From assembly GCA_965198355.1 (NCBI GenBank), contig CBDAPI010000015.1, positions 922,608 through 986,607 on the forward strand: 64,000 bases of DNA, written 5' to 3'. Below, in pieces: positions 5,934 to 63,323 of this stretch (position 1 is the stretch's first letter; each line of letters opens with the position of its first letter). The notes beneath the pieces were generated by a model. That model had not been told where the DNA came from. It saw nothing but the letters and a program-made list of their open reading frames with translations, and did not search any database. A program made the position numbers and the translations under genes. This DNA comes from Acidobacteriota bacterium. Lineage in GTDB: Bacteria; Acidobacteriota; UBA6911; RPQK01; CBDAPI01.

Positions 5934-6215
5934 ATGGCAAAACGAAGGAATTTCTCAGCTCAGTTTAAAGCGAAGGTGGCGCTGGAAGCGCTTCGAGGCG
6001 AACGCACCCTGAGCGAGTTGGCGGCTCGCTACGAGATCCATCCGAGTGTGATCACGAATTGGAAAAAGCGGGCCAGGGAAGGTCTGGGCGATGTGTTCGC
6101 GGGCAAGGTTGAGAAGCGTCAGAGAGGAAGCGAGGCGGAGACCAAAGAGCTTTATGCCAAGATCGGCGAACTGACGGTGGAAAAGGATTTTTTGTCCAAA
6201 GCGCTCGATCGCTGA
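5934..6215 (+). CDS. IS3-family transposase OrfA
   Basis: MAKRRNFSAQFKAKVALEALRGERTLSELAARYEIHPSVITNWKK. Confidence 0.85.
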   Translation: MAKRRNFSAQFKAKVALEALRGERTLSELAARYEIHPSVITNWKKRAREGLGDVFAGKVEKRQRGSEAETKELYAKIGELTVEKDFLSKALDR

Positions 6216-6286
6216 GTGTAAAGGCCAGAAGGGCCACGATCGAGCCAAAGCACCCGAGGCTGAGCATTCGTAGACAATGCAGGCTG

Positions 6287-7135: not shown

Positions 7136-7603
7136 AAATGCCGCCAAGTGGTCCAACCGATGGGGTCCACCTCTGTCTACTCCACCCCACTGTATCTACA
7201 TATTCCACAGATTAGCCTTCAGTCTGGTCTAATCGTCGCTTCAGATATTCCTTTTTGGATGGCGTTGGCCAGCTTGATCGCCAGCGCCACTGTCACGGTG
7301 GCCTTGTATATCTTTTTATACCGTTTGACTAAGAGTCTTCCGGTGGCATTAGGAGCAGCCTTAGCTCTGCAGCTGAATCCAACCTTCTGGTTCAATAGTG
7401 TATATGGCTTTGCTACAATTGTGGCCCTGGCTTTATTGTTAGTTTCCTTAGTTTTGTTTCAGGAGGTCTTAGAAAGTTCAACCTAAAATATTTATTCTAT
7501 GGTGGCGCCTTTCTCATGTATATATTGGCAGTCACCACCAAGATAGATACTATATTAGCCACTGCTATATTCTGCTTGCCGGTCTGGTCCTCTGAACGTT
7601 CGG

Positions 7604-18040: not shown

Positions 18041-18676
18041 GTGAGTTTAAGGGCGTATCTAACATTTCTGAACTGGGCGTCGCTACTGTCAGGAGATCTT
18101 ACAAATCGGCCGGATTCTGTTATCTGACCTGTTTTCAATCGTTTTGGACAATGTCGTTTCGGTGGTTGACGAGATAGTGTCGGAATGACTTACAAGAGTC
18201 CATTCACGGGTACGCTTGTGACCGATGCAGGTTCCGGAACATTCCCTTTGGAATCACGGTGCTAGCCATTCGGCACGGCGCCGGCACGAGAGTTGCTTCT
18301 GTGGATCTGGGAGCACATTCTAGCGAGATGTGGCGCCACCGCCCTTCCCCCAAGAAACGGGGCGCCTCAGGTGAAGCCCAGGATTAGAGGGGGCCTGGGC
18401 CCACCAACTCTTGACTGTCACTTGTGACGTTTCTTGTTATACACCTCGGTTGTCTGTGGAATGGTGTCGGCCATCACAACCTTCCCGAGAACCGAGTACC
18501 AATCACCACAACGGCACGACGAGCACATTGCTTGTCTCCGGCCTGGGATTTCCTATAATGCATTTCTAGAAAGCGTCAGCTGACAGGACACCCATCACTT
18601 CATTCAAAGCTGAAACGCTGAAGCCGGGGAGGGATTGTTCAAGCGCTCTGAGGAGCGTGATGCAGACGGACAAAGC

Positions 18677-20257
18677 ATGTTGATACTCGGAATTGGAGGC
18701 TGGCTACATGATGGTTCGGCGGCGCTAGTCCTTGACGGTGAGTGCATTGCCGCGATCGAAGAAGAGAAGTTGCTGCGCCAAAGGCACCCTGGTGGTTTTC
18801 CGGGCCGGGCGACGACGACCTGTCTAAAGATCGCCGGGGCCCGTCGAAAGGATGTCGACATAGTTGCCCTTTCAAAGCCTCTTGACGCCGGGAAAGAGGC
18901 CAGTGCGCTTCTGCATTTGAAGACACTCTTCCCCAATTCGAAAACGGTTATCGTTGATCACCACACAGCGCACGCTGCAGCTGCCTTTTTCCCTTCCCCA
19001 TATGAGAATTCCCGTGTCCTAACGTTGGATCACCATGGTGACGTTTGTTGTGGAACGATTTGGCAAGGTGCGGGGAATCAGTTGCAAACGATAGACGCAA
19101 TCTACTATCCAGACAGCCCGGCAGCTCTCTATACCAAAGTCACAGAGTTGGTAGGCTTTAAGCCCGACTCCGAAGAGCACAAGGTCCAGTGGCTGTCGGT
19201 CACTGGAGAGCCACGGTTCAAGGAGCTGTTTCTAGCGATCCTTGGTATGGGCCGAGATTCGCTCCCGAAGCTTGACCATAGCTATTTTGATACTGGACGC
19301 GCGACCCATGGCGGCTTTAGTGAGCGTTTCTATCGTGAGCTGGACATCAATCTCGATGAGCCCTTGGGCGAGGACATCAAAGCGGATCTGGCGGCGAGCA
19401 TCCAAACAGCCGTTACAGAGACCGTTCTGCGCATGGCTGGAGAAGGAAAAAACATCTGCCTTGGGGGCGGTCTGGCCTACAACGCCTTGCTGATCCAGAG
19501 CATTGAGGAGGCCGGTCGGTTTGAAAACGTATGGATCCAGCCGGTGACAGGGAACGCTGGGATATCGCTTGGCAGCGCCCTGTACGCACTCCATCAGAGC
19601 CAGTCCGACGCCAAAAGGCACGTCTTGCGCAACATCTTCCTGGGGGAAGAGTATGGTAGCGAAGAGATCAAGCGGGTGCTGGAGAATTGCAAACTGCGGT
19701 TCGGCTACCATCAGAGTAAGAGCGAGATGGGTAAAGCTGCAGTGCAGCAACTGACCGACAATAAGATTGTGGCATGGTTCCAGGGCCGAACTGAGTTTGG
19801 TCCTCGCGCACTAGGAAACCGCAGTATTCTGGCCTCTCCTCGCAATCCCTACGCGACACAAAACCTCAACGAGTACATCAAACATCGTGAACCTTTTCGC
19901 AAGTTTGCGGCCTCGATTCCAGAAGAGCTGGCCTCTCAGTACTTTGAGGTTAGTGACAATTCCCGGTTTCTGGCGACGGTAAGCCGCGTCAAGCCCAGTC
20001 ATCAAGAAACATTCAGTCCGGCTTTGCTGGAGGGTGACAGAATTCGGGTCCACGTGGTCTGCAAAGAGGAGAATCAGCTGTACTGGGAGCTCTTACAGGC
20101 GGTAGGGAAAGCGAGTGGACTGCCTGTTGTCTACAACACGTCATTCAACCTCTTCGGAGAGCCATTGGTCTCGGATCCTCGCTCAGCGGTTCGAAGCTTC
20201 TACTCTTCGGGAATCGATACCCTCTTCATCGGGAACTTTGTCGTAGAGAAGAAGTAG
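18677..20257 (+). CDS. NodU/CmcH-family carbamoyltransferase (likely start MLILGIGG; ORF-track start 18635)
   Basis: MLILGIGGWLHDGSAALVLDGECIAAIEEEKLLRQRH...CLGGGLAYNALL. Confidence 0.8.
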   Translation: MLILGIGGWLHDGSAALVLDGECIAAIEEEKLLRQRHPGGFPGRATTTCLKIAGARRKDVDIVALSKPLDAGKEASALLHLKTLFPNSKTVIVDHHTAHAAAAFFPSPYENSRVLTLDHHGDVCCGTIWQGAGNQLQTIDAIYYPDSPAALYTKVTELVGFKPDSEEHKVQWLSVTGEPRFKELFLAILGMGRDSLPKLDHSYFDTGRATHGGFSERFYRELDINLDEPLGEDIKADLAASIQTAVTETVLRMAGEGKNICLGGGLAYNALLIQSIEEAGRFENVWIQPVTGNAGISLGSALYALHQSQSDAKRHVLRNIFLGEEYGSEEIKRVLENCKLRFGYHQSKSEMGKAAVQQLTDNKIVAWFQGRTEFGPRALGNRSILASPRNPYATQNLNEYIKHREPFRKFAASIPEELASQYFEVSDNSRFLATVSRVKPSHQETFSPALLEGDRIRVHVVCKEENQLYWELLQAVGKASGLPVVYNTSFNLFGEPLVSDPRSAVRSFYSSGIDTLFIGNFVVEKK

Positions 20258-21957: not shown

Positions 21958-24900
21958 GTGTTGTCGAGTCTGTGGAAATGGGCTCCCCGGGCCGGCTTTT
22001 ATTTGGGGGAGGCGCTTGGGTTCCTGGTATCGGTGGGGTTGCTGGCTGCCTGCACCGAGAGGGGCCCCAGACCTGTCTTGTCCGAGGTTCAGTTGGGACA
22101 AGCTGATGCTCCAGGTGGTTCCTACCAGGAGATCCGTCCCGGACCTTTCAGCTTTCATCCCAACCTCGGGCAGTTTGAAAGCGACGTGGAATTCGTAAGC
22201 CGCAGCAGGGATTCGATGCTGCTCTTCAAGACAGACGAATTCCAGTTGTTTTCCCGCTCGACGTCTCTCTCTCACCAGCCGCTGCACAAGGCGCTCACCA
22301 TGAGGCTCGTCGACGCCGATCCCCGCGCCACGGTCCGCGGCCAGAAGCAACTTCCCGGAATAGTCAACTACCTTCGGGGAAATGATCCTGCAAGATGGCA
22401 GACGGCTCTCAAGACCTACCAGAGAGTTCATTACCAGAGCGTCTACCCTGGGACAGACCTCCTTTTCTATGGAACGTCCAAAGATCTCGAGTACGATTTT
22501 GTCCTTGGCCCCGGGGCCGATCCGGAGCAGATTCGACTTCGCTTCGATCACCCGGTCGAAATCGACAGCTCTGGGGATCTTTCCGTAGCGACCCCAGCGG
22601 GGATCCTCAAGCTTCGCCGGCCTGTTACCTACCAGCATAGGCTGGGGACTCAGCAGGAGATTCCATCCCGGTACCGAAGACTCGAGGGCGGGGATGTCGG
22701 GTTTTGGATAGGCGACTACGACCGGCGCTACGCTCTGACGATTGATCCTGTGGTAGTGCTCTCCAGCTTCCTGGGAGGCGGAGAAGCGGACTCGGCTTCA
22801 GGTGTTCAGGTGGACGCGCGGGGCGATATCTACATTACGGGCCTAACTTCTTCCATCAACTTTCCCACCAGCGCCGGAGCCTCTCAACAAGCCCCTGCCG
22901 GGGGAGCGGACATCTTTGTCACCAAGCTCAACGCCCAGGGCGATTCAATGATTTACTCCACCTACGTGGGTGGTGAAGGGGACGATCTCCCTGCGACGCT
23001 TGGCATTGATTCCTCTGGAAATGTTTACGTGACCGGCCAGACGACGTCGCAGGATTTCCCGGTGGCCGGTGCTTTTCAGGAGGAATACGGAGGAGGAACC
23101 TCCGACGCTTTTCTCTTCAAGCTCAACCCCAACGGCACGGGTTTGGCTTATTCGACGTTTCTGGGAGGCCGAAGCAACGATACCGGCAACATCGTCCGGA
23201 TCGATTCTCAGGGAAATGCCTATGTGGCAGGGTTTACCCGCTCCGACGATTTCCCCGTTACTGAAGGCGTCCTGCAGCCAAATTACCGTGGAGGACTCGC
23301 CGACGCTTTCGCGCTCAAAATGAATCCCGCCGGTTCGAGTCTCCTCTATTCCACCTACCTGGGAGGGAATCGACAGGACGAGGCCCGGGACATCGGGTTT
23401 GATGCGGAAGGGAATGCTGTCGTGGTGGGTCTGACCGATTCGACCAACTTTCCCACTGCAGAGCCCTTCCAGGGGCAAAGAAACGGGCAATTCGACGTCT
23501 TCGTCAGCAAACTGGATGGGGAGGCTTCGACACTGGTTTTCTCCACCTACCTGGGAGGGAGCTCTTCGGATGTTCCTTTCGGAGCCATCGTGGACGAGGC
23601 TGGCGACATATACATCGTGGGTGAAACGGGCAGCTTTGATTTTCCCACCGAAAGCGCCCTGCAACCGGCCAAGTCCGGAAGTCTGGATGCCTTTGTCACC
23701 AAATTCCGGGGAGATGGTGCAGGGCCCATCTTCTCCACCTTCCTGGGCGGGTCCGGCTTCGACTCGGGTCGAGCCATTGACGTCACCGACAGCGGCGGTG
23801 CCGTCATTGCGGGCGTGACCACATCGGCCGATTTCCCCACCCTGGCCACTCTCATGGTCGACCCCCAGGGCACCGACGCCTTCCTGGCCGCCCTCAATCC
23901 TTCGGGCTCCGGCCTCCAGTACAGCACTTACGTGGGCGGACCGGGGACGGAGTTCGCTACTGGCCTGGCCTTGGACGCAGAGGAAAACGCTTACGTGGTC
24001 GGGTCAGTCGATCGGCCGGGTTTTTCCACGCTAGCGGCTTTGCAGGATTCTTTCGGGGGGAAAGGCGTTTTTGTGAGTGCGAACCGTGCTGGCAACTGGC
24101 AGGGTTCCGGTGAAGGCTTGAGCAACCCCAATATCGAATCCCTGGTAGTCCATCCTGACAACTCTGCCCTCCTCTATGCGGGAACCTCCGGCGGCGGAGT
24201 TTTCAAGAGCAGCGATACAGGGGAGACGTGGTCGTCCTCCGGTCTCGAATTCCAACAGGTTCTCGCCCTGGACATCGACGCCACCAATGACATCCTCTTT
24301 GCCGGGACGACTAACGGCCTCTTCAAGAGCGAGGACGGTGGAGAGAACTGGGATCAGATGAGGGAGTACCTGCCCTTTGCCGCCTTCCCGGTACTGGTGG
24401 TCGACTCCAAAGGGCCGGAAACCGTGTATGCCGGGAGCCAGGGCCGAGGCGTATTCAAGACGACCGACAGCGGAGCCAGGTGGAGAGCCATCAACAACGG
24501 CCTCAGAGGCAGCGCTCAGCAGATTCTCTCGCTGGTCATAGATCCTGGTAATAGCAGGCAGCTGTACATTGCGACTCCCCGGGCCGTCTACTCCAGCAGC
24601 AACGGCGGCGCCACCTGGCAAATGGCCGAGGCCAACCTGGAGGACTTCTCCACGATTTCGACTCTTATCGTCGACGCTGGGGGCCCGGCGACGCTCTACG
24701 CCAGCGGAATCTCAGATACGACCAGCATCCCGCCTGAATTCTGCGACTTTGCGCCCCCCTGTAACAACTTCGTTTTGAAGTCAACCGACCGCGGAACCAA
24801 CTGGGATCTGTTCGCCATGGGTGGTCCGGTGTCTTCGCTGGCCCTGGATCCGTCAAACCGATCCACCCTGTATGCCGGGACTTTCAGGGCTGGAGTCTTC

Positions 24901-26544
24901 AAGAGCACCGATGGGGGCGAGACCTGGGAAGAAGCCAACTCGGGCCTGCAGAGTCTGCAGGTGACAGCTCTTTCACTCGATCCTTCCAACTCCTCCCGAC
25001 TGTATGTGGGAACCCGGAGCTCCTCGGACGGTTTTTTTCTGAAAATAGCCCCTACCCAGGTTTTTTTCTTTGCTCAGATTGGAGAGGGCTCGCAGGGTCA
25101 AATCCGCCTTCAGACCACTTTGATTCTCATCAACACGGGAGGAGATACGGTGGCTCGGGTGGAGTTTCTTGACTCTTCCGGCCAGCCTCTCGAAGTGACG
25201 CTGGGGGACCTGGGAAGCGACAGCATGTTTGAGATTCCCCTGGCCAGGGGTGCTGCATTCTCAGCACAGACGGCCGGTGAGGGTCCTGTTCGTGTTGGGT
25301 ACGCTCGAGTCACCACCAGCTCGGGTGTTGGCGGTACTGCGGTGTTTACTCGTACCGACATTGCCACCGGGGTTGTTCTCTATGAGGCCGGTGTGCCCGC
25401 CTCACCTGCCCTGTCCGGACCTGTTTCTCTCTTTGTGGACTCTCTGAACAACAAAGACACCGGGCTGGCATTGGTGGTGGCCGGCCCGGAGAATCTGAAC
25501 CCGTCCGGAAACACCGAAGTTAACCTCGATCTTTTCGACCGGGATGGAAACCAGATCGGGCAACAAGAGTGGAATCTGGAGCAGGGCGAGCATCGGTCGA
25601 TTTTCGTTCCTCAGATCTTTGCAGAGATCGCTGAGCAGGTGGGTGAGATGCAGGGTGTCCTCCGGGTTCGTTTCGACCAGCCTGTGACGGGTCTGACCCT
25701 GCTCCAGGGCGACGATCCTGGTCTGGAATTCCCTGCAGAGATTCCGACCCTGACTTCCCTGCCTCTGGTCGAGCGAAGCGGAGTGGCCAACCTCGTCTAT
25801 CTGCCTCAGGTTGCGGATGGGACGGTGATCATCCCCCCCGGTGTTACGGCTGACGACAAGTTCCAGACCGGTTTCCTGTTCGTCAACAGCGGCGTGTTCC
25901 CCGCTCTCGTCACCCTGGACCTGTTTGGCCGCGATGGAGAACCCCTGGAACTGACGCTGGGAGACCAGGGAACCGACTCAACTTTTCAGGTTTTTGTATC
26001 TCCTGGTTTTTTCTTTTCACAAAGCTCGGGTGAGGGATCGCTCAGCATCGGTTATGCACGGGTCTCATCCAGCACTACAGCACTGGGGGTGGCTGCAGTT
26101 TTCACGCAGACTGACCTTCGCAACCAGACAGTCCTTTATGAGGCGGGAGTGCCGGCCGCCAGCCCGCTTCGCGAGTTCAGTTTGTTTGTAGATACTCTGG
26201 GAGTTGGTAACACGGGCCTGGCCCTGGTGAATCCAGACCTCGAAGAAGAGGCTGTCATCCAGCTTCGCCTCTACGACAAGAACTCCAATCTGATCAATCG
26301 GGAAGAGATAGTGCTTGGACCCGGCAGGCATCTGGCCCAGTTCGTCACTCAACTCTTCTCGCAGGGACAGGCCCAGCTCTTTGAGATGGAAGGCGTTTTG
26401 ACGGTGGAAAGCAGCCAGCCGCTGGCCGCCGTGACGTTGCGCGTACGGGATGATCCACAGCGAGACTTTCCCGCAGACGTTCCGACGCTGGCAACTTTTC
26501 CGGTCATCCCGGGTCGAGCCAGACTGGATGACCCGGAACCTTAA
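21958..26544 (+). CDS. 1528-aa lipoprotein-type giant surface protein: SBBP beta-propeller repeats, then six S-x-D-x-G-x-T/N-W (BNR/Asp-box, sortilin/Ycf48-like) repeats, then 3x unnamed C-terminal module
   Basis: lipobox LLAAC; repeats YSTYLGG..D.G..I..D..GN.YVTG.T.S.DFP (x ~9); SSDTGETWSS, SEDGGENWDQ, TTDSGARWRA, SSNGGATWQM, STDRGTNWDL, STDGGETWEE; C-terminal ...DTGLALVNPD..EAVIQLRLYDKN... Confidence 0.8.
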   Translation: MLSSLWKWAPRAGFYLGEALGFLVSVGLLAACTERGPRPVLSEVQLGQADAPGGSYQEIRPGPFSFHPNLGQFESDVEFVSRSRDSMLLFKTDEFQLFSRSTSLSHQPLHKALTMRLVDADPRATVRGQKQLPGIVNYLRGNDPARWQTALKTYQRVHYQSVYPGTDLLFYGTSKDLEYDFVLGPGADPEQIRLRFDHPVEIDSSGDLSVATPAGILKLRRPVTYQHRLGTQQEIPSRYRRLEGGDVGFWIGDYDRRYALTIDPVVVLSSFLGGGEADSASGVQVDARGDIYITGLTSSINFPTSAGASQQAPAGGADIFVTKLNAQGDSMIYSTYVGGEGDDLPATLGIDSSGNVYVTGQTTSQDFPVAGAFQEEYGGGTSDAFLFKLNPNGTGLAYSTFLGGRSNDTGNIVRIDSQGNAYVAGFTRSDDFPVTEGVLQPNYRGGLADAFALKMNPAGSSLLYSTYLGGNRQDEARDIGFDAEGNAVVVGLTDSTNFPTAEPFQGQRNGQFDVFVSKLDGEASTLVFSTYLGGSSSDVPFGAIVDEAGDIYIVGETGSFDFPTESALQPAKSGSLDAFVTKFRGDGAGPIFSTFLGGSGFDSGRAIDVTDSGGAVIAGVTTSADFPTLATLMVDPQGTDAFLAALNPSGSGLQYSTYVGGPGTEFATGLALDAEENAYVVGSVDRPGFSTLAALQDSFGGKGVFVSANRAGNWQGSGEGLSNPNIESLVVHPDNSALLYAGTSGGGVFKSSDTGETWSSSGLEFQQVLALDIDATNDILFAGTTNGLFKSEDGGENWDQMREYLPFAAFPVLVVDSKGPETVYAGSQGRGVFKTTDSGARWRAINNGLRGSAQQILSLVIDPGNSRQLYIATPRAVYSSSNGGATWQMAEANLEDFSTISTLIVDAGGPATLYASGISDTTSIPPEFCDFAPPCNNFVLKSTDRGTNWDLFAMGGPVSSLALDPSNRSTLYAGTFRAGVFKSTDGGETWEEANSGLQSLQVTALSLDPSNSSRLYVGTRSSSDGFFLKIAPTQVFFFAQIGEGSQGQIRLQTTLILINTGGDTVARVEFLDSSGQPLEVTLGDLGSDSMFEIPLARGAAFSAQTAGEGPVRVGYARVTTSSGVGGTAVFTRTDIATGVVLYEAGVPASPALSGPVSLFVDSLNNKDTGLALVVAGPENLNPSGNTEVNLDLFDRDGNQIGQQEWNLEQGEHRSIFVPQIFAEIAEQVGEMQGVLRVRFDQPVTGLTLLQGDDPGLEFPAEIPTLTSLPLVERSGVANLVYLPQVADGTVIIPPGVTADDKFQTGFLFVNSGVFPALVTLDLFGRDGEPLELTLGDQGTDSTFQVFVSPGFFFSQSSGEGSLSIGYARVSSSTTALGVAAVFTQTDLRNQTVLYEAGVPAASPLREFSLFVDTLGVGNTGLALVNPDLEEEAVIQLRLYDKNSNLINREEIVLGPGRHLAQFVTQLFSQGQAQLFEMEGVLTVESSQPLAAVTLRVRDDPQRDFPADVPTLATFPVIPGRARLDDPEP

Positions 26545-26851
26545 CCTCGCTCCTTCCAGCGTGCCGGCGCGGCCGCTCTGTTGAGTACACCGTCGGAATT
26601 ATTTACATTCTGTCCTGGCTCGCACGAATGGACGACAACCATTGTGCTTACATGTATTTATATGAACTTTGCAACTCTCCGATTCTTGGCAAGCTGAAAA
26701 GCTGTTTGAATTCTTTACACTTCTCCAACCAGTGGCAATTCATATGTCTGCGAAACAGGCAACTCAGGTCTATTGAGAAGGGTTATTAACTGCTTGTTTT
26801 TCAATATTTTAAGGTCTACTGAAACGACGTCATGAATCACGCAAGAAGAAG

Positions 26852-26867
26852 TGGCACCCGAATTGCT
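26852..26867 (+). promoter_or_regulatory. sigma-54 (-24/-12) promoter candidate TGGCAC-N5-TTGCT, ~65 bp upstream of the PEP-CTERM gene
   Basis: gTGGCACccgaaTTGCTttc; AT-rich leader; sigma-54 enhancer-binding protein gene at 63387-64000. Confidence 0.5.
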
Positions 26868-26930
26868 TTCAGCTTGAATTGGAATGAGCAGTAGAACTAT
26901 CGAGCTAGGAAAACAGAGGGGCTTCTGAAG

Positions 26931-27545
26931 ATGAACGTGAAAATGTCGGCATTGATCGTATCTATGGTCTTGATAGCGGCGGGATTCGTTGGCAACACAG
27001 AAGCAGCTACTATTACGTTGACGGGTTCTCAGATTGACTCTTTCGCTTTTAGCGCCGTAAGTAGTTCCTCGAACGTTTTTTCTGCCAGCAATAATTTTAA
27101 TGGTTTTTTCGATGTCGATTTCGACTCCACCAGCCCCGGCGCTGGATTGGGGGTCTTTGAACTGACAGGCCTCAGCATAACCTACACCGCAGGCGGATAC
27201 CTCTCGCTACTCTTCACGAATTTGAACTTTAGCACCTGGGGCTTCGAGTTGGTTGTTACTACGGATGGCGGAGTTTTCACAAGCGGCGTAACTGCCATCA
27301 CTGCAGGGTTTTCCAGTATTCTGTCCGCCACCCTGGCTTCGGGCTCTACGATCACAGATATTGAGATCTCGGTCTCGGGAACTATACCCAACACGAGCAA
27401 CCCCTTCGGTCTAGACGACGTGGCCGCTGATTGGCGGGTCCAAAGCGTATCCGAACCGGGCTACGTACCCGAACCGGGCACCTTGCTGTTGCTGGGCGCG
27501 GGCCTGCTTGGGTTACCCTTGGTGAGAAGACTTTCAGGAAGGTAG
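26931..27545 (+). CDS. PEP-CTERM sorting-domain protein (exosortase substrate), 204 aa
   Basis: signal peptide; C-terminus ...GYVPEPGTLLLLGAGLLGLPLVRRLSGR = PEP motif + TM + basic tail. Confidence 0.75.
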   Translation: MNVKMSALIVSMVLIAAGFVGNTEAATITLTGSQIDSFAFSAVSSSSNVFSASNNFNGFFDVDFDSTSPGAGLGVFELTGLSITYTAGGYLSLLFTNLNFSTWGFELVVTTDGGVFTSGVTAITAGFSSILSATLASGSTITDIEISVSGTIPNTSNPFGLDDVAADWRVQSVSEPGYVPEPGTLLLLGAGLLGLPLVRRLSGR

Positions 27546-27569
27546 AATAGACGGCTTACCAGGCTAACC

Positions 27570-27610
27570 AAAAAGGGCCGGTGGTTTTGGACCACCGGCC
27601 CTTTTTGGTT
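27570..27610. terminator. bidirectional rho-independent terminator between convergent genes
   Basis: perfect palindrome aaaaaGGGCCGGTGGttttggaCCACCGGCCCttttt followed by a T-run. Confidence 0.7.
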
Positions 27611-27735
27611 TGGCCCTTTTTTTGTTTCAGGAATCGAGCGAAATTGGGTTGCCCCCGTTGTGACGCCGGTTATGACCCGATGCCTGGCCACCGTGCATAC
27701 TTCATCTCTGACACCCCCCGCGGAGCTGGGTCGGT

Positions 27736-28626
27736 TCAGACTCGCGTATCCCTTTCTGATCTGCGAAGAAGCCACAGGACCGGCACCATAAAGATCAGCG
27801 CCAGGATAAAGAAGGGATAACCGCCGCGAGTATGAAGAGGCCCAGACAAAAAACCGTCATCCACATAAACAGTCAGAAGACACAGTGTGACGATGCGGAG
27901 ACCGTTTTTGAAGATCGCGATTGGGACGGCTGCCAGCGCCAGAACCACCTTCGCCCCGGGCGAACGCAGGAAGAAGTGGCCGGCCAGAACTGCCGTGATA
28001 AACAGCGCCAGGCCCGAGCGGATGCCGCTGCACTCGGGGGCCACGTCGATGGTCAGACCCGGAAGTGCAAACACCGTTCCCTCCCGAAAAACCGGGATCG
28101 GCAGCAGTTGGAAAACGGCACCGGTGACTTCGGCCGAAGCCAGCTGCAAAGCTGTTATGACCCTGTTCAGAACGGCGCTGGGAATGGGGATCGCAAAGAC
28201 CAGGAAAGCCAGTGGAAACAGCGCCGCCCGCGAGGCAGCGGGGCCAAAGCACGTCACAAATCCACCGATCCACACCAGAACCATTCCCAAAGCTGTCCAC
28301 GAGAAGAAGTCGTTTTGGTTGAGATTGGCTTGCTGACTTGAGCTCAGGGTAAAAGCGAGCAGACCGGTGCCCAGCAAAGAAAAGCCCAGCACAGGCGAGT
28401 AATCAACACGGAGAAAGATCTTGGTCCGGTGCAGATAAAGAAGATAAATGGAAACCAGTGGAATCAGTGCAAAGTGGGAGTAGTGATTATGCCGCTGAGA
28501 GTAATGGAAGAGGGCAATAATGTGAGTAGAGAATGCACCGAAGAAGCCAACGTTGAAGGTCAAGAAAAAGACGCCGCGTCCGAGTCGGCGGCCACCTGAC
28601 AACAATCTCTCCCCTCGAGTTCCCAC
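27736..28626 (-). CDS. exosortase (Xrt/EpsH family), short 296-aa form; GTG start 1 nt after the upstream gene's stop
   Basis: multi-TM; FAIPIPSAV (P-x-P), APECSGIRS (catalytic Cys), KNGLRIV (N-G-x-R) are exosortase signatures. Confidence 0.75.
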   Translation of the reverse strand: MGTRGERLLSGGRRLGRGVFFLTFNVGFFGAFSTHIIALFHYSQRHNHYSHFALIPLVSIYLLYLHRTKIFLRVDYSPVLGFSLLGTGLLAFTLSSSQQANLNQNDFFSWTALGMVLVWIGGFVTCFGPAASRAALFPLAFLVFAIPIPSAVLNRVITALQLASAEVTGAVFQLLPIPVFREGTVFALPGLTIDVAPECSGIRSGLALFITAVLAGHFFLRSPGAKVVLALAAVPIAIFKNGLRIVTLCLLTVYVDDGFLSGPLHTRGGYPFFILALIFMVPVLWLLRRSERDTRV

Positions 28627-28627
28627 T

Positions 28628-29209
28628 CTATTCGCCCGTCCTGGGAGGGAGGATTGTTACCATCACCATGTCCGTCGCTTCCCTTCCCACCCCGTCCACA
28701 GCCTTGACCTCGAACACAAGCTCGGTCTGTGAGGTGACTTCTGGCGCCAGAAAGACCAGTTCCTGCATATTCATCTCAGTGATCGAGATAATCGGTCCCG
28801 TAGCCTGCATCCAGAGAAAGGCGGCATGCATCACTGGGCAGTTGGCCGTGAGCAGAACCAGCTCACCACCGTACACTTCCAGGTCGGGCCCGGCACTTAC
28901 TGACATCAGCTCGAGTTCGACTTTGGCCTTGACTTCGCTTGAATAGGCGCTTTCAAGTCCCTCGATATCGACCGAAGTGACAACGTAATAAAAAGTTCCG
29001 CCCGGTTCAACTTCTAAGTCGGCATAGAACGGCGGGCCTATAAGTTCCTGGTTCAGCTTCTGATAAGGTCCCCCAGAGACATTGAAGCGGTAGACGTTGT
29101 AGCCCGCAACCCAGCAGCCGTCGGGGGGATCCCACGCCAGTTTGACGGACTGGGAGTAGCCAGCAAGCGTGCTGATGGCGAAGGTCACGGTCAGGATGAG
29201 ATATCGCAT
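28628..29209 (-). CDS. secreted FN3-domain protein (likely start MRYLIL at 29209; ORF-track TTG start 29236)
   Basis: VKLAWDPPDGCWVAGYNVYRF...GTFYYVVTSVD is homologous to the FN3 module of 15233-18010. Confidence 0.65.
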   Translation of the reverse strand: MRYLILTVTFAISTLAGYSQSVKLAWDPPDGCWVAGYNVYRFNVSGGPYQKLNQELIGPPFYADLEVEPGGTFYYVVTSVDIEGLESAYSSEVKAKVELELMSVSAGPDLEVYGGELVLLTANCPVMHAAFLWMQATGPIISITEMNMQELVFLAPEVTSQTELVFEVKAVDGVGREATDMVMVTILPPRTGE

Positions 29210-29223
29210 GGTTGATCTAAACT

Positions 29224-29277
29224 CCCCAATCCGCAATCCATGATTCCCGAAATCCCAAATCCGAAATCCGCAATTTC
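29224..29277 (+). repeat. heptad array (7 units of AATCCGC/AAATCCC/AAATCCG type) filling the spacer between the LRR stop and the FN3 start
   Basis: ccccaatccgcaatccatgattcccgaaatcccaaatccgaaatccgcaatttcc. Confidence 0.7.
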
Positions 29278-32200
29278 CTACCTTCGCCTAGAATTCGTCG
29301 GTGGTGCAGCCGAGAGCGCCGTCAGGTTGTTGGTGCCAAACAGTTGTTGCGCTACGATGTCAACCGTTGAAGAGACCACGATATAGCCTCCCCTCTGCCC
29401 CTCGGTTTCGGGTACTAGTTCCGCGACGGTTCTCGAGATTCTGTGGAACGGATCCAGTTGAAGTTCCCTCACCCCCGTTTGCACTCCTTGGGGAGAAAAG
29501 ACACCAATCTCGATCTCGGCCGGGTCGGGCCCCGGATTGAAAAAGGCCAACCCCGTAAAAAAGCCTTCCAGATTAGCCACCTGATTGAACACGGCTCCCG
29601 AGAACGGCTCCGCTTGGAGCTGAAGAGCTGCAGCAAACTGCAACTGGCCCGGGTCTCCAAACACCACGTCGCCAATGATTCCTGGTCCATTCGCGGTCAT
29701 CTCGAGAGACCCCGTGACCGAGGGGGGCAGATCCATCAACTCCGAGAGATCAGACTCGAGCGTCTCTCTGGGAAGAAGCAAATAGTCCACAGTTTCTCCG
29801 ACGTTATTTCCCACCTCGTCAAACACGGAGAGGCTCACCGTTCGCGCCTCGTCACTGACATTGAGAACTTTGAGGTTCGTGAAGAGTAGGGAAGGGATCT
29901 CACTGGCCTGGGCTGAATAAAGCCGGGAGGCGTCAAACTCGATCCAGGGATTCAAGGCGAAGATCGTCTGCTCATCGCCGAGACTCACGTAATGGAACCC
30001 GAGGATGCCTCTACCCTCTTCCACTTCTGCTTCCAGGAAACCCTCTGAAACCTCGGGTATATCGAACAACTCCTCCACATCCATCGACAACAGGCCATAC
30101 GGCATCAGCGCCACCCTTGTATCCAGAATCTGTGCTGGAAAGATCGAAGTCAGGTGAAGTGTGAGCCGAACGGTTACCGGATCGACATTGGGATTGACCA
30201 AATGAATCCGGGTCTCAGCAGGTTGGCCACGAAAGGCAAGAGGTCCCTGATAGATCCGATCAAAGACCAAACGCCGCGATGCTCGCTCGACAGATATGGA
30301 CCCATCCATCCGGCTGAGATTCCAGTTGAAGAATTGGAAGAACGTGCCTATCTCCGGGTGGCTTGTCGTAATCCGAAGCCAACCGACTTGAGCCGTAGGG
30401 AGAGCAGAAGGACAGAAGAGATCCCGGCCCAGTCTGAGCACTTGCTCTCCCTGATCCAGAGTCACGTTCAGGAGATCCGTCGGGCAGGTTGTCAAATCAC
30501 CGAAGCTCTCGATCTGCAAGTCAACGAATTCATCGGCCTGATTGGAGATCGAGAATCCAGAAAAAGAGCCGCCCTGGGGAGGGACGTCCTCCTCCAGGTA
30601 GAAAGGGAAAAAGACGTCCCGGATTCTCCAGTTTCCTCCCAGCTGCTTCTGACCGAGGAACTGTTCCAAACTCTCGTTTCCCGAAGAGAGCTGGTTCCAA
30701 CGAAGATCCAGCTGTTGATCACCGAGGCGACTAAGATCGAGCAGGTCGGCTGGAACCTCTCCGGACAAATAGTTGGAGCGAAGCGAGAGGACCTGGAGCT
30801 GGGAAAGCCTTCCGAGTGACGCGGGGAGCTCACCTTCGAGGGTGTTATTGGCCAGCGCGAGGACTCGAAGTTGTGCGAGATTTCCGAGCTCGGAAGGGAT
30901 CAGACCCAGCAGCTGGTTATTGTCCAGGGCCAGCACCTCCAGCCGTGAGAGCAGGCTGAGTTGTGTGGGGATCGGGCCGGTCAAGTAGTTGCCAGATAAA
31001 GAAAGAAGCTCCAGGTCCATAACTGCAGCCGGAAGCGCAGTTAGGGTGACCGGAATCTCTCCACTGAGGCGATTGTCTTCCAGCGAGAGACGCAGCAATT
31101 GGGGCATCCCCAAGAGAACGGGAGGAATCGCACCCTCGAGCCGGTTGTGCCCCAAATTCAACGATCTCAGCTTGCTGAGACGTCCCAATTCGGCCGGTAT
31201 GGGACCCCACAAGTGGTTGCCCGCGAGACTGAGATATTCCAGCCGCGCAAGATTGGCAAGACTTGCCGGAATCTCACCGGAGAGTTGATTGTTGCTCAGG
31301 TCCAGGTCTCTGAGTCCGGAAAGCATCCCAATAGAAGGGGGGATGAGACCGTCAAATCGGTTGGAGTACAAGCGCAGGCTATCGAGGCCCGTCAGGTCCC
31401 CGATCTCGGCCGGTATCGGCCCCTCAAACTGATTATCGTAAAGCAAGAGCTGTGTCAGCTGGTTGAGCTGTTCGATATCGCCCGGGACGGGGCCGGTCAG
31501 CCGGTTCTTCTCCACCGAAAGAAGGCGCAGATTCTGAAGTGAACAGATCGACTCTGGAAGTTGGCCATTCAACAGATTGCCACCCAGACCCAATTCCAAG
31601 AGTTCTAGGAGACTGCCTATGTCAATCGGGATGGGGCCGGTTAAAGCGTTGTTCTCGAGACGGAGGAATTGCAACTGCGTCAGCTGCGTGATTTCGGAAG
31701 GAATCGTCCCAGCGAGTTCGTTTCCCGCGAGATTCAACAAGGTGAGTCGATCCAAGTTCCCAATGTTCTGAGGAAGTCCGCCTGAGAAGCTATTGTTCGC
31801 CAGATCGATTCTGCGGAGAGAGCTCAGAGATCCGATTGAAGCCGGTATTGCGCCTTCGAATCGGTTATTGGCAAGTTCCAGCGACTGGAGACTCCCCGAC
31901 TTGTTGATCGTGGCGGGGATTCCTCCCTCGAGATCATTCTCTGAGAGCGAGAGAGACTGCAGAACAGGTAATTCGAAAAGCGCGGGGGGGTCTCCCCGCT
32001 CAACTGGTTATCGTTGAGCGCGAGAACTCGAAGCGACCGGAGATTCCCGATTTCTGGTGGAATGGTTCCAGAGATCTGATTGTGGCCCAGAGAAAGGTAG
32101 CGCAGATTTTCGAGCTGTCCCAACTCGGAAGGGAGTGGTCCACCGAAGCGGTTGCGGCTCAGTGAGAGGTTCTGCAGATTGAGCAGGCTCCCGATCTCAG

Positions 32201-33170
32201 CCGGGATAGTCAAGCTGAGCTGGTTGTCAGCGGCCAAAAGTGAATGAAGCTCGCTCATGCTTTGCCACCCGGCGGGGATCGCCCCAGTAAAGTTATTGAA
32301 GCTTACGTCGAGAAAGTGTAATCGACTAAGGTCTCCCAGTTGGGGGGGTAGCCGGCCGCGAAGGCGATTGTGGTCGAGGCGAAGACTGAACAGGCGTGAG
32401 AGGCCGCCCAGCTGAGCGGGGATTCTTCCGGAAAGCCCGTTCTCCCCGAGGTTGAGAACTTGGAGAGCCTCAAGGGCTCCCATTTCCCGTGGAATCGGTC
32501 CAGTCAGTTCATTCCGGGAGAGATTGAGAGATCTCAACTGTTGCAGTTGTCCCAGTTCCGCTGGGATTTGCCCTCTTAGTCGGTTGCCGGATAAGGAGAT
32601 ATTCCTGAGACTACTCGAATCGCCAAGAGACTGAGGAATCGCTCCCGTAAACAAGTTGTTATCCAGGAGAACCGATTCCAATTGCTGCATCCGGCCTAGA
32701 AAACCTGGAACGGAGCCACTGAGCTTGTTGCCGGCAAGGGAGAGGGTCTTTAGGTTGGGAAGATCCTCGAGACTGTCCGGCAGTTTGTCTGAAAGGGCGT
32801 TGTCATTGAGCCGCAACTCGACAAGCTCATAGAGCAGGCCGATCTCGGTCGAAAGGGAGCCGACGAGATTATTCGCAGACAGGTTGATCTTGAAGACTTG
32901 ACCCTCGCGAACCTCCACACCATGCCACTCCCCCTCAGTTCCCTCCGGTCCGAGCCATCCTTCAGCGTTGAACCACTCTTCGCCGCCCGCTTGCACGTAA
33001 AGATCAATCAGGGCCTCCCGTTCCTGCGGGGGAATGGGTTCGGACGTTCCCCCGTCCTGGCTACGCACGAAGCCGATTCCAAGACAAAGGGATAGTAGTA
33101 GAGCAAGGGAAACTCGCATGAAAGTCATGAAAGTCATGTTCAACAGACTCTTGAGCTTCACTGCCAACAC
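29278..33170 (-). pseudogene. ~1290-aa secreted plant-type (24-residue) LRR protein with the shared C-terminal module; split into 31824-33170 and 29278-31755 by a frameshift in a G7 (minus-strand C7) homopolymer at ~31987-31993. Either a pseudogene or phase-variable
   Basis: LxxLxxLxLxxNxLSGxIPxxLGxL repeats x>30; adding one C restores ...GETPPALFELPVLQSLSLSENDLEGGIPATINKSGSLQSLELANNRFEGAIPASIGSL... and joins the two ORFs. Confidence 0.7.
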
Positions 33171-33182
33171 TCGTTCTTACTC

Positions 33183-33429
33183 ATTTCAGCAATCCAAATC
33201 CGCAATCCGAAATCCGAGATTCCCTTGTTGTTTCTCTACAGAACCAGAAACCGATAGTACTGGAGCTTAAGAAACTGCAGCGTGACCTCCTGGATACCGT
33301 GCCAGCTTTCGGCCCAGTTCGCCGGAGTCCTAGTTCCTAACACGGGGACGCAGCGAACCTCAATGCTCAACTCACCCAAAGATTCTTGATAGATTCGAGT
33401 CGAGCGTCGGCTGCGGCAGGATCCGGGCG
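33183..33429 (+). repeat. 245-bp direct repeat, copy 1 (heptad array at its 5' end), flanking the IS3 remnant
   Basis: ~99% identical to 34078-34324 (1 indel). Confidence 0.8.
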
Positions 33430-34074
33430 TGGCGGCAGATCCAGAGCCTGACAGCCGGCACGGACTCCGTGGGATTGTGAGAATCGCAAAGCTTCGTCCA
33501 TCAGCTCTCGTCTCCGTTCTCTTCGCTGCTCGCCAGAGAGATTCCCAACAGTTGCGAGACTTTTTTTTGGAGATCCAGCATGGCTTCAAACTTCTCGAGC
33601 TTGCGTTTCAGCTTCCGATTCTCAGCCTCCACTTGCCTCAGTTGATGATCCAGAGGATTGACCGGCTTTGCCTTTCGTCCCCGCTTGCGAGGGGTCAATG
33701 CCTGCAGCGTTCCGTGCTCGCGTTGGCGTCGCCAGGTCTGCAGATTCGACCAGTAAAGTCCTTCTCGGCGCAGTAATGCTCCCACTTCGCCCGACTCTTC
33801 GCAGCCATCGGCCTGCTCCAGGACCCGGAGCTTATAGCGGGCTGAAAACCGGCGACGGGTTGCCTTGGCAGGAACTTCCGGGTCGGGTCGCGGCAACGCC
33901 TTCTCGGGCTCGGTCCGTCCCGCAGCGATTTTGGAGACCTCTCCCCTCCGCTCCGAGGTTTCCAAAATCCTCAGTTTCTTGTCGCTTCTGTTTTCTATCA
34001 TTCTGTAATCCAGCTTCTCGCCCTCTACTCTAATTTAGCCGGGAAGAAGTGTCTCACCATTATTGGCACAGAGG
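33430..34074 (-). mobile_element. IS3-family remnant (same IS as 1-1262): orfB deleted, orfA and right end retained
   Basis: identity to copy A from ~612 to 1262; A8 instead of A7 at the slippery site. Confidence 0.75.
33501..34001 (-). CDS. IS3-family transposase OrfA (166 aa, natural stop)
   Basis: identical to the N-terminus of the 380-1189 product up to ...AMLDLQKK. Confidence 0.8.
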   Translation of the reverse strand: MIENRSDKKLRILETSERRGEVSKIAAGRTEPEKALPRPDPEVPAKATRRRFSARYKLRVLEQADGCEESGEVGALLRREGLYWSNLQTWRRQREHGTLQALTPRKRGRKAKPVNPLDHQLRQVEAENRKLKRKLEKFEAMLDLQKKVSQLLGISLASSEENGDES

Positions 34075-34077
34075 GTT

Positions 34078-34324
34078 TCAGCAATCCAAATCCGCAATCC
34101 GAAATCCGAGATTCCCTTGTTGTTTCTCTACAGAACCAGAAACTCGATAGTACTGGAGCTTAAGAAACTGCAGCGTGACCTCCTGGATACCGTGCCAGCT
34201 TTCGGCCCAGTTCGCCGGAGTCCTAGTTCCTAACACGGGGACGCAGCGAACCTCAATGCTCAACTCACCCAAAGATTCTTGATAGATTCGAGTCGAGCGT
34301 CGGCTGCGGCAGGCGGGCGTCACC
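34078..34324 (+). repeat. 245-bp direct repeat, copy 2 (begins with heptad array 34081-34116)
   Basis: see 33183-33429. Confidence 0.8.
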
Positions 34325-63223: not shown

Positions 63224-63323
63224 ATCGGTTGCGCTCCCTTTGGGGAGCTAACATCCCGCAAACTATAAACGAGCTTTTTCGTAGCTCGAAGCTCATTCGG
63301 GAACGCAAGGTGGGTCAGGTTCT

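Follow-up and report, generated by a model that had tools for sequence, protein, structure and literature searches.

The region contains a single substrate gene of a PEP-CTERM/exosortase sorting system together with its processing enzyme, and it is very probably wired to the PrsK/PrsR regulators in the standard way. The locus is an ordinary example of a known surface-protein sorting system, and the oddities flagged in a preliminary description of this DNA do not hold up. In the window, i.e., the whole 64-kb stretch of Acidobacteriota DNA that was analysed, the substrate gene with its upstream elements lies on the plus strand, the exosortase gene faces it from the minus strand, and the end of prsR is situated at the far end.

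The PEP-CTERM substrate gene (26931–27545, plus strand) encodes a protein of 204 residues that ends in ...YVPEPGTLLLLGAGLLGLPLVRRLSGR. The tail, VPEP-GTLLLLGAGLLGLPLV-RRLSGR, contains the Pro-Glu-Pro motif (VPEP, residues 179–182, nt 27465–27476), a hydrophobic helix, and a basic, RR-containing end. The protein scores 23.8 against Pfam PF07589 (cutoff 20.7) and 18.1 against TIGR02595 (cutoff 16); hence, motif, helix, basic cluster, and HMM score all assign it to the PEP-CTERM sorting domain class, as originally described. The signal peptide, read by eye, spans approximately residues 1–25 with the N-terminus MNVKMSALIVSMVLIAAGFVGNTEA-ATI, and a candidate ribosome-binding site, GAGGGG, is located at 26916–26921. 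Orthologues share 64–75% identity with the protein, and one of them is named an Acidobacteriota PEP-CTERM protein by NCBI. The best matches of three genes of the locus bear Acidobacteriota names, and positions 1–15 kb yielded no housekeeping gene suitable for taxonomy. A search for other PEP-CTERM genes revealed no additional tail or gene in the rest of the 64-kb window or on the overlapping contig L082.

A predicted sigma-54 promoter, TGGCACccgaaTTGCTT, is located at 26852–26868 on the plus strand, with 62 nt between its last base and the ATG of the PEP-CTERM gene. It is an exact TGGCAC-N5-TTGC, with GG at 26853–26854 and GC at 26865–26866, ten bases apart, and the perfect -24/-12 match of the preliminary description is present at this site. 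The element is the only exact occurrence in the window when both strands are scanned. Shuffled windows are expected to contain 0.13 such matches each, and 13 of 100 shuffles contain one; the match by itself is therefore weak evidence, and its significance derives from the position 5' of the sole PEP-CTERM gene of the window and from its conservation in orthologues. In four orthologous PEP-CTERM genes of Acidobacteriota MAGs from three assemblies (L083–L086), the same element is situated at -78 to -80 from the ATG, compared with -79 in the window, and the conservation on which the earlier proposal depended is thus found in four of four orthologues at the same offset. Furthermore, six PEP-CTERM genes adjoining homologous exosortases in other phyla possess the element (L002, L006, L007, L023, L032, and L041), at L002 further upstream, at -347, and at a seventh locus (L020) it lies 44 nt inside the called ORF. 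Transcription would start near 26878.

Upstream of the promoter, two predicted PrsR enhancer boxes of the TGT-N11-ACA type, each with a TTTACA end, are located on the plus strand. The distal box, CGTCGGAATTATTTACA (26591–26607), has one mismatch to TGTCGGAATNNTTTACA, and the 17-nt proximal box is TGTTTGAATTCTTTACA (26703–26719). The two boxes start 112 nt apart, and 132 nt separate the proximal box from TGGCAC. Matches to TGTCGGAATNNTTTACA with at most three mismatches number 5 in the window against 1.22 expected, and no shuffle reached 5. The same box exists 5' of the sigma-54 PEP-CTERM genes at L002, L007, L020, L023, L032, and L041, as well as upstream of the orthologues L083–L086; at six independent loci the position of the 17-nt, TTTACA-ending box relative to the promoter is -134 to -166. 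The distance from box to promoter is 132 nt in the window, 109–111 nt in the orthologues, and 128–160 nt at other loci of the exosortase clade, and L023 repeats the 112-nt box-to-box spacing of the window with a spacer to the promoter of 128 nt.

The TGT-N11-ACA dyad is typical of NtrC/NifA-family sites. Compared with the upstream activator sequences of the NifA/NtrC type (TGT-N10-ACA), the window boxes are alike in the TGT...ACA dyad and in lying more than 100 nt 5' of a -24/-12 promoter, and unlike in N11 instead of N10 and in the flanking consensus (TGTCGGAAT..TTTACA). Between the boxes and the promoter, a possible IHF-type bending site, CAA-N4-TTA, is located at 26802–26811 on the plus strand, a reading derived from the general IHF consensus, which is WATCAANNNNTTR. 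Its C243, A244, A245, T250, T251, and A252 are invariant in a four-sequence alignment of the orthologous upstream regions, and such a site would presumably be a further likeness to the NifA/NtrC-type activator sequences.

A corresponding cis-pair was originally reported in Proteobacteria only, as motif 1 (17 nt ending TTTACA, sometimes repeated), a spacer, the sigma-54 motif, and a start codon about 71 nt further on; its phylogenetic profile matches PrsK/PrsR/PrsT (Haft 2006, PMC1569441). The window contains two copies that agree with motif 1 as described in that text, i.e., in the 17-nt length, the 3' TTTACA, and the repetition. The spacer in Proteobacteria is 62.8 ± 10.6 nt, with a range of 32–92 nt (PMC1569441); the 132 nt of the window fall outside this range, and the 109–132 nt of the window lineage are approximately twice the published spacer, which counts against standard wiring. 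PrsR is predicted to bind both boxes.

The gene at 63387–64000 (minus strand) runs off the window, which retains the C-terminal 203 residues of a PEP-CTERM-box response regulator. The fragment, the C-terminal half of a sigma-54 activator, has an AAA lid domain and a Fis HTH domain and scores 248.5 bits against TIGR02915 (profile positions 249–444), with the next family at 184.7; the activator described earlier is thus of the sigma-54 type and corresponds to PrsR. Contig L082, which is 100% identical to window positions 60827–64000 (3174 nt), contains the full-length PrsR with 580.2 bits (cutoff 502.6) and the Response_reg, Sigma54_activat, and HTH_8 domains. The prsK-like kinase suspected beyond the window end is found there directly upstream of prsR (L082 6277–8406), with 400 bits against TIGR02916 (cutoff 300). 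Both proteins exceed their equivalog cutoffs, and the predicted PrsR boxes are located 5' of the putative promoter, in agreement with the proposed fit to established PrsK/PrsR sigma-54 control. PrsT (TIGR02917, cutoff 312.2), a single TPR lipoprotein of about 900 residues, is represented on L082 by adjacent TPR ORFs scoring 183, 73.6, and 43 bits, fragmented or divergent and all below the cutoff, and an IS1380 element is situated between prsK and these PrsT-like genes. The prsKR pair lies approximately 35 kb from the exosortase, in the same cluster and not adjacent to it. The sequence covered does not include rpoN.

The exosortase gene (27736–28626, minus strand) is an ORF of 296 residues from GTG 28626, or of 289 residues from TTG 28605; the public gene call has 289 residues and agrees with TTG 28605, the likelier start. 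Against the family HMMs, the product passes the generic exosortase models, with 160.7 for PF09721 (cutoff 25.7), 127 for TIGR02602 (cutoff 105.55), and 58.1 for the TIGR04178 signature (cutoff 23). In a 25-sequence alignment, Cys199, Arg244, and His265 are invariant, and the intact ORF keeps all 28 residues that are invariant in its clade. Three such residues, Cys, Arg, and His, have been proposed as the exosortase catalytic triad (Haft 2006, PMC1569441). The HMM scores, these three residues, and the nearby PEP-CTERM gene place the protein in the exosortase family (EpsH; TIGR02602/PF09721). The earlier view of the enzyme as unusually short does not survive comparison, as 296 residues are typical of the best 120 of 840 homologues (211–345 residues, mostly 280–330) and of the model lengths of XrtA (261), XrtB (268), and XrtC (306).

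Classification succeeds at the generic level and reaches no named subtype: the scores are 168.7 for XrtC (cutoff 300), 142.4 for XrtW (425), 138.2 for XrtD (400), and 132.6 for XrtA (TIGR03109; 208), against which seven clade members score 132–149. Since the protein is below every named-subtype cutoff, including that of XrtA, equating it with XrtA is a functional analogy only. XrtC, the VPDSG-CTERM-specific enzyme (TIGR04151), is the best-scoring named subtype, with a nearly full-length alignment, and is similar in length and in having no fused EpsI domain; however, its cutoff of 300 is missed by a wide margin, the adjacent substrate has a canonical VPEP rather than VPDSG, and the whole clade scores likewise. 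EpsI (TIGR02914) has no match at E ≤ 0.01 in the exosortase or in the adjacent FN3 protein, and no extra domain is found in the 296 residues.

By its sequence, the exosortase falls within a large clade without a fused EpsI domain that has not yet been named, and its length is normal for this clade. The clade comprises 840 matches at E ≤ 1e-5 and, among species-representative genomes, no fewer than 484 loci. A PrsK homologue follows the exosortase in 28 of 81 loci and a PrsR homologue in 19, the 81 consisting of 80 homologue loci and the window itself (L001), where neither follows. The usual setting of the clade is an Xrt-PrsK-PrsR operon or a classic XrtA-like EPS locus. Homologues of FemAB, the chain-length determinant, and the tyrosine kinase, which flank relatives of this exosortase, were not found in the window. 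A literature search yielded no publication on this clade of exosortases or on acidobacterial exosortases.

The PEP-CTERM and exosortase genes are convergent and 190 nt apart, and the bidirectional intrinsic terminator described between them is located at 27570–27606, consisting of A5, GGGCCGGTGG...CCACCGGCCC, and T5. A simple terminator scan did not list this hairpin, which was revealed by direct folding: the energies are -46.3 kcal/mol on the plus strand and -43.6 on the minus strand (z-scores -7.2 and -6.8), and none of 200 shuffles folds as well. On the minus strand, the LRR, FN3-PKD, and exosortase genes follow one another in the same orientation; the exosortase gene is the last, the run ends at the hairpin, and the three are probably co-transcribed. 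The LRR–FN3 gap measures 41 nt, or 68 nt when the likelier FN3 start is used, and the FN3–exosortase gap 1 nt, or 22 nt with the likelier start of the exosortase. The TAGaGTG junction exists as described, with the FN3 stop TAG at 28630–28628 followed, after one base, by GTG 28626; when TTG 28605, preceded by GAGGGGAG in our own reading, is taken as the start, the two genes are close (22 nt) and not strictly stop-start coupled.

The FN3 gene (28628–29236, minus strand; likely start ATG 29209, 193 residues) encodes a secreted FN3 and PKD-like protein without a C-terminal anchor, which matches PDB 3mpc, 'Fn3-like protein' (E 2e-5), and scores 26.5 against PF22352, K319L-like PKD, just below the cutoff of 27. 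The LRR region (29278–33170, minus strand) is one gene of approximately 1297 residues, with a signal peptide, many LRRs, and a 440-residue C-terminal module. The giant LRR gene of the preliminary description has LRR Pfam matches in both halves; its reading frame is split into two ORFs (33170–31824 and 31755–29278) by a -1 frameshift at the C7 run 31984–31990, where the frames switch. A two-sequence HMM of the C-terminal module does not detect it in the 1528-residue protein at 21958–26544, so the 'shared module' is common to the LRR protein and a 925-residue protein only.

The preliminary description raised the possibility that the exosortase has alternative clients or partners in the LRR, FN3, and shared-module proteins. 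The one-strand arrangement with gaps of 41 (68) and 1 (22) nt and one terminator would suit this idea, as would the signal peptides in all three proteins. FN3-domain genes are, moreover, mildly over-represented at the +1 position of homologous exosortases (6 of 80, compared with 25 of 1092 flank genes overall), an excess that is weak and not phylogenetically independent; the +1 FN3 gene of L002 has a CFI-box-CTERM domain, and the product of that in L006 has a terminal hydrophobic stretch and then RRRR. However, these FN3 neighbours elsewhere are convergent and have only the domain in common, so they are not orthologues, and a search for an FN3 orthologue beside other exosortases gave only domain-level matches to unrelated, convergent genes. 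The C-terminal ends of the LRR and FN3 proteins contain neither a hydrophobic helix nor a basic tail, and a PEP-like motif is missing as well. Among the eight LRR-module homologues retrieved, none has a PEP-CTERM tail or anchor; seven end at the module, one extends past it, and most end at ...SAVPPT.... The module itself models as four beta-sandwiches in the predicted structure, which suggests a fold like that of adhesins or stalks rather than a sorting signal. In none of 83 other loci is an LRR or FN3 gene directly and closely upstream of the exosortase (the only one found upstream, at L061, lies at a distance of 516 nt), the LRR-FN3-exosortase order is repeated in none of about 85 related loci, among them 80 genome loci and three closer metagenome contigs, and the LRR frame is broken. 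The client role is unsupported and highly improbable, a looser role as partner, though conceivable, has no support here, and the LRR and FN3 genes are probably mere neighbours of the exosortase, not substrates. Just as improbable is a lineage-specific unit of the three genes, in which FN3-PKD would be a periplasmic accessory to an EpsI-less exosortase, or the adhesin-like proteins would share an exopolysaccharide matrix with PEP-CTERM proteins, and the C7/C8 tract would act as a slipped-strand switch tuning the exosortase by polarity.

The accidental adjacency of these genes would also be expected if the locus were a decaying, IS-ridden remnant with an exosortase cut off from its usual partners (prsKR, a FemAB-family protein, the chain-length determinant, and the tyrosine kinase) and poorly expressed or non-functional. 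At least seven IS or intron elements exist in the 64 kb (IS1380 twice, IS3, IS200, IS630, an IS fragment just 5' of the LRR gene, as well as a group II intron), two genes in the locus are frameshifted, two assemblies of one strain disagree in the IS3 insertion, and the partner genes conserved around homologous exosortases are absent from the flanks of this one. Parts of the locus may be decaying. As an account of the whole, decay is nonetheless unlikely: the exosortase ORF is intact with every clade-invariant residue, the PEP-CTERM gene, promoter, and boxes are intact, with the promoter elements also 5' of all four orthologues, and prsK and prsR are complete and exceed their cutoffs. The frameshifts could, in addition, be assembly errors. 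A split carbamoyltransferase has no long homopolymer at its junction, which speaks neither for nor against such errors. If the -24/-12 match is real, it could still be served by a sigma-54 activator other than PrsR, with the TTTACA boxes binding something else. The departure from the published PrsR-box spacing leans this way, and a literature search found no biochemical PrsR binding for any species. However, the boxes fit the published description, their dyad is of the NtrC/NifA-family kind, they co-occur with PrsK/PrsR-linked exosortases in several phyla, and PrsR is the sole activator seen in the locus; a different activator is accordingly considered very unlikely.

In the preferred reading, that of a standard PrsK/PrsR-controlled substrate and its exosortase, the membrane histidine kinase PrsK, encoded just past the window end, would phosphorylate PrsR. 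PrsR would then bind the boxes at 26591–26607 and 26703–26719 and activate sigma-54 RNA polymerase at TGGCAC-N5-TTGC (26852) via DNA looping, possibly aided by a bend at CAA-N4-TTA. The resulting monocistronic mRNA would extend from near 26878 to the hairpin at 27570–27606. The 204-residue protein would be exported by Sec and retained in the inner membrane by its C-terminal helix, and the exosortase, through Cys199, Arg244, and His265, would probably cleave it at VPEP and hand it over to an acceptor in the envelope or exopolysaccharide.

The closest known system is the PEP-CTERM/exosortase system with PrsK-PrsR-PrsT (Haft 2006, PMC1569441; NCBIfam 'XrtA/PEP-CTERM system'). The window resembles it in the single-gene PEP-CTERM operon behind a long intergenic region, the 17-nt TTTACA enhancer (doubled in the window), the sigma-54 motif, the roughly 62 nt to the start codon, PrsK and PrsR above the equivalog cutoffs, the exopolysaccharide gene cluster, and the invariant Cys/Arg/His. 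It differs in an exosortase below the XrtA cutoff (132.6 against 208), with no EpsI domain or gene seen, a lineage spacer of 109–132 nt compared with about 63, an Acidobacteriota host instead of Proteobacteria, prsKR about 35 kb from the exosortase, and PrsT-like genes that are fragmented and below cutoff. In Aquincola, experiments have shown that a PEP-CTERM gene whose -24 box is TGGCAC depends on RpoN (PMC9850573). The pepA of Aquincola tertiaricarbonis/Zoogloea is likewise a small PEP-CTERM protein (approximately 200–260 residues) with a TGGCAC -24 box and prsK-prsR in the genome (PMC9850573). However, it belongs to another phylum, and its mature domain is unrelated to that of the window protein, of which floc_PepA NF033554 matches the tail only (21.1, cutoff 80).

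PEP-CTERM genes as single-gene sigma-54 operons under PrsK/PrsR are already known, and the locus mostly confirms this arrangement. It goes further in that the pair of enhancer box and -24/-12 element, previously reported from Proteobacteria only, is now found in Acidobacteriota, and in that the box has a clear TGT-N11-ACA dyad with a spacer about twice as long. The same cis-pair accompanies this exosortase clade in MAGs that carry the labels Deltaproteobacteria (L002 and L032), Syntrophaceae, Syntrophorhabdaceae, and Smithella, as well as in an unclassified one (L041). A tempting false lead, the LRR/FN3 proteins as non-canonical exosortase clients, is removed. Meanwhile, a very large exosortase clade travels with prsK-prsR and XrtA-type EPS genes, and because it passes the generic exosortase model only, current annotation leaves it unnamed.

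Between 26,500 and 33,200, the locus is composed of a convergent gene pair and two more co-oriented genes. The PEP-CTERM gene (26931–27545, + strand) encodes a protein of 204 aa that begins with a signal-like sequence and ends in the tail YVPEPGTLLLLGAGLLGLPLVRRLSGR. The ORF scores above the cutoffs of both PF07589 (23.8, cutoff 20.7) and TIGR02595 (18.1, cutoff 16), bearing out the PEP-CTERM substrate claimed in the preliminary description, and is the sole bearer of such a tail, since a whole-window scan of the ORFs revealed no second one. Three successive genes on the − strand encode an LRR protein (33170–29278), a protein with FN3 and PKD-like domains (29236–28628), and the exosortase (28626–27736). 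Transcription from the two sides converges on a hairpin (27570–27606, both strands) between A5 and T5 runs. Its folding is strong in either orientation (+ strand −46.3 kcal/mol, − strand −43.6 kcal/mol, z approximately −7 for both), in agreement with the bidirectional terminator proposed between the convergent genes. Directly upstream of the regulatory region of the PEP-CTERM gene, a 1528-aa secreted protein (21958–26544, + strand) contains DUF7948, SBBP beta-propeller repeats, BNR/sortilin-like repeats, and, at the C-terminus, two further repeats of approximately 210 aa without a Pfam match.

Upstream of the PEP-CTERM gene, TGGCACccgaaTTGCTT (26852–26868, + strand) is the only exact TGGCAC-N5-TTGC in the window on either strand. 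The exact match alone is not decisive, because shuffled sequences give 0.13 expected matches, and allowing one mismatch yields about as many sites as chance (5 observed vs 4.2 expected). The decisive evidence for the predicted sigma-54 promoter is comparative. A search of 5.8 billion sequences yields five clear relatives of the PEP-CTERM protein (64–98% identity), one of which is named an Acidobacteriota PEP-CTERM protein, and the upstream regions were compared on four contigs, drawn from three assemblies, that encode such relatives. The element TGGCACagttcTTGC is retained in all four orthologues at positions −78 to −80 relative to the ATG (−79 in the window); the preliminary description had made its promoter dependent on such conservation. 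Furthermore, a −24/−12 element lies upstream of six PEP-CTERM genes adjoining homologous exosortases in other MAGs (labelled Nitrospirota, Syntrophaceae, Smithella, Deltaproteobacteria, and one unclassified), 51–83 nt before the start codon in five of them. For a PEP-CTERM gene of Aquincola that has a TGGCAC −24 box, experiments have demonstrated dependence on RpoN (PMC9850573).

In Proteobacteria, PEP-CTERM genes are preceded by motif 1, a spacer, and the sigma-54 motif 2 approximately 71 nt before the start codon; motif 1 is a 17-nt element with the 3' end TTTACA, repeated in some cases, and the motif 1/2 site shares its phylogenetic profile with PrsK, PrsR, and PrsT (Haft et al. 2006, PMC1569441). 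Two predicted PrsR boxes of the motif 1 type occur in the window on the + strand, a distal box CGTCGGAATTATTTACA (26591–26607), 47 nt beyond the end of the ORF for the 1528-aa protein, and a proximal box TGTTTGAATTCTTTACA (26703–26719). The consensus TGTCGGAATNNTTTACA with at most three mismatches matches five window sites vs 1.2 expected, and no shuffle reached five. The four orthologues carry a box TGTCGGGATT(C/T)CTGACA, with a second box CGTTGGGCTTCTTGACA in three of them; a TGT-N11-ACA dyad is thereby exposed. At six exosortase homologue loci, a matching box precedes the sigma-54 element by 134–166 nt: in L002, L007, L020, L023, and L032, and, in inverted orientation, in L041. It is doubled in L023, with a 112-nt spacing identical to that of the window. 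The box-to-promoter spacer is 109–132 nt in this lineage and 128–160 nt in other exosortase-linked loci; the value published for Proteobacteria, 62.8 ± 10.6 nt, is about half of this (PMC1569441). Within the spacer, CAA-N4-TTA (26802–26811) does not vary in an alignment of four upstream regions; an IHF-type bend site is one possible reading. Elsewhere in the window, a PrsR-like box with one mismatch, TGTCGGAATGACTTACA (18178–18194, + strand), is followed 87 nt on by CGGCACgagagTTGC (18282–18296). Both are intergenic, approximately 340–380 nt upstream of a NodU/carbamoyltransferase-like ORF (18635–20257), and could represent a second PrsR/sigma-54 target.

The ORF at 63387–64000 (− strand), cut at the window end, has TIGR02915 (PrsR) as its best match: the alignment covers the C-terminal half of the profile and scores 248.5 bits, as against 184.7 bits for the next-best family. 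An ENA contig, L082, is identical to window 60827–64000 (100% over 3174 nt) and extends beyond the window end. On it, the full-length activator reaches 580.2 bits with TIGR02915 (cutoff 502.6), and directly upstream lies a 709-aa kinase scoring 400 bits with TIGR02916 (PrsK, cutoff 300), so the prsK gene sought beyond the window end is indeed present. Farther along L082 are an IS1380 copy and several TPR ORFs, which match PrsT below its cutoff (183 vs 312). An orphan exact sigma-54 match, TGGCACgattcTTGCTT, adjoins the IS1380 copy (L082 4303, − strand) with no PEP-CTERM ORF downstream and may be the remnant of a disrupted target.

Three general models recognize the exosortase ORF above cutoff: PF09721 (160.7), TIGR02602 (127; cutoff 105.55), and the signature TIGR04178. 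Alignment with 24 homologues shows Cys199, Arg244, and His265 to be invariant. Scored against the Xrt subtype HMMs, the protein reaches no named-subtype cutoff (XrtC 168.7 bits, cutoff 300; XrtW 142.4, cutoff 425; XrtD 138.2, cutoff 400; XrtA 132.6, cutoff 208). The same generic-model-only pattern is repeated in seven clade members. The length of 296 aa, previously regarded as unusually short, is normal: among the best 120 of 840 homologues (E ≤ 1e-5), lengths are 211–345 aa, mostly 280–330. The public gene call is 289 aa and corresponds to TTG 28605; on our reading, GAGGGGAG precedes this TTG and is a stronger candidate ribosome-binding site than any sequence ahead of GTG 28626. With this start, 22 nt separate the FN3 stop from the exosortase start; the two genes are therefore close, but not overlapping-coupled as had been suggested.

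Relatives of the exosortase are encoded at at least 484 loci in species-representative genomes. In the best 80 of these, labelled Deltaproteobacteria/Syntrophales, Nitrospirota, Rokubacteria, Binatia, and many Acidobacteriota, four genes per side of the exosortase were clustered and the clusters named by NCBIfam. PrsK follows the exosortase in 28 and PrsR in 19 of the 81 relative loci analysed. Many Acidobacteriota encode a FemAB-family XrtA-associated protein and an unnamed 413-aa protein just upstream, and genes for the XrtA-associated tyrosine kinase and chain-length determinant are common around the exosortases. The three closest long contigs (L001, L087, and L088; exosortase identity 51–54%) are classic EPS loci with FemAB, ATPase, Poly_export, Wzz, and kinase genes, and in L088 a 76-aa PEP-CTERM gene lies directly upstream of the exosortase. 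None of the PrsK, PrsR, FemAB-family, 413-aa, tyrosine kinase, and chain-length determinant genes flanks the window exosortase, and no LRR gene flanks the exosortase in the relatives' loci examined; the window arrangement is therefore lineage-specific. Orthologues of the window PEP-CTERM gene adjoin a Vut_1 gene elsewhere, not an exosortase. The clade as a whole (Acidobacteriota, Nitrospirota, Syntrophales, Rokubacteria, and Binatia) comprises proteins of approximately 280–330 aa recognized only by the generic exosortase HMM, without EpsI and commonly in the order Xrt-PrsK-PrsR.

The LRR and FN3 proteins had been put forward as possible alternative clients or partners of the exosortase. The two LRR ORFs are one gene: LRRs in frame 1 run to ...NDNQLSGE and frame 0 resumes with ...PPALFELPVLQSLSLSENDLEGGIP. 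A −1 frameshift in a C7 run (31984–31990), where C8 would restore the frame, splits the gene of approximately 1297 aa (29278–33170, − strand) into ORFs of 448 and 825 aa. Possible explanations for this frameshift, which lies in the first gene of the run leading to the exosortase, are a mistake in the assembly, decay to a pseudogene, and slipped-strand phase switching. The 440-aa C-terminal module of the LRR protein (29278–30600, − strand) recurs with 27% identity at the C-terminus (16715–18010, + strand) of a 925-aa FN3 + DUF11 protein (15233–18010, + strand). Only 14 homologues of the module were found among 5.8 billion proteins; in the eight retrieved, the N-terminal regions joined to it are RHS-like, BNR/sortilin-like, or FN3-like, and seven carry it at the C-terminus, the usual ending being ...SAVPPT.... 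Its AlphaFold model (mean pLDDT 87, pTM 0.86) reads as a tandem array of four beta-sandwiches. Taken singly, domains are similar to TM1070 and to the Anabaena sensory rhodopsin transducer; taken as a whole, the array is only weakly similar to macroglobulin/adhesin-type arrays (TM-score 0.1–0.2). The FN3 protein (193/202 aa) consists of a signal peptide, an FN3 domain (PDB 3mpc, E 2e-5), and a PKD-like domain (PF22352, 26.5 vs cutoff 27). FN3-domain genes at +1 downstream of related exosortases (6 of 80, all convergent) are somewhat more frequent than the 2.3% among all flank genes, and share the domain alone with the window protein. The C-termini lend the client proposal no support: the FN3 protein ends ...TILPPRTGE without an anchor, and none of the eight module homologues has a PEP-CTERM tail after the module. 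We conclude that both are secreted adhesin-like neighbours, not exosortase substrates; a looser functional link to the exosortase is possible but finds no support in these data.

The window arrangement sits in a region dense in mobile elements (two IS1380, IS3, IS200, IS630, an IS fragment, and a group II intron). The IS fragment (33430–33861, transposase ORF-A type) lies between two perfect direct copies of a 169-nt repeat (33252–33420 and 34145–34313) and is identical to a copy at 619–1049. Fragment and repeats are immediately upstream of the LRR start, so that the promoter region originally serving the LRR-FN3-exosortase run may have been disrupted. The otherwise 100% identical L082 carries a copy of the IS3 of window 5864–7174 between the FkbH-like and sulfotransferase genes (L082 12613–13923), and the window lacks this copy at 60447/60448. 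A 161-nt tandem duplication whose copies (60660–60820 and 60827–60987) are 99% identical overlaps the FkbH-like gene at its 3' end. The group II intron (42033–43815, − strand) is inside the glycan gene cluster and comprises a reverse transcriptase/maturase ORF (42033–43322) and Rfam RF02003 (43678–43815, 118.8 bits). A carbamoyltransferase gene (45625–47398, − strand) is divided between an N-terminal ORF of 199 aa and a C-terminal ORF of 395 aa, which overlap; their junction contains no long homopolymer.

Overall, the original sequence observation is confirmed, as is the regulatory interpretation of the PEP-CTERM gene, now extended by the PrsR boxes, the full-length PrsR, PrsK, and the conservation of the promoter. 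Two aspects are mildly new: a large unnamed exosortase clade accompanying prsKR, and a predicted promoter architecture of PrsR box and sigma-54 element that, with a longer spacer, also occurs outside Proteobacteria.
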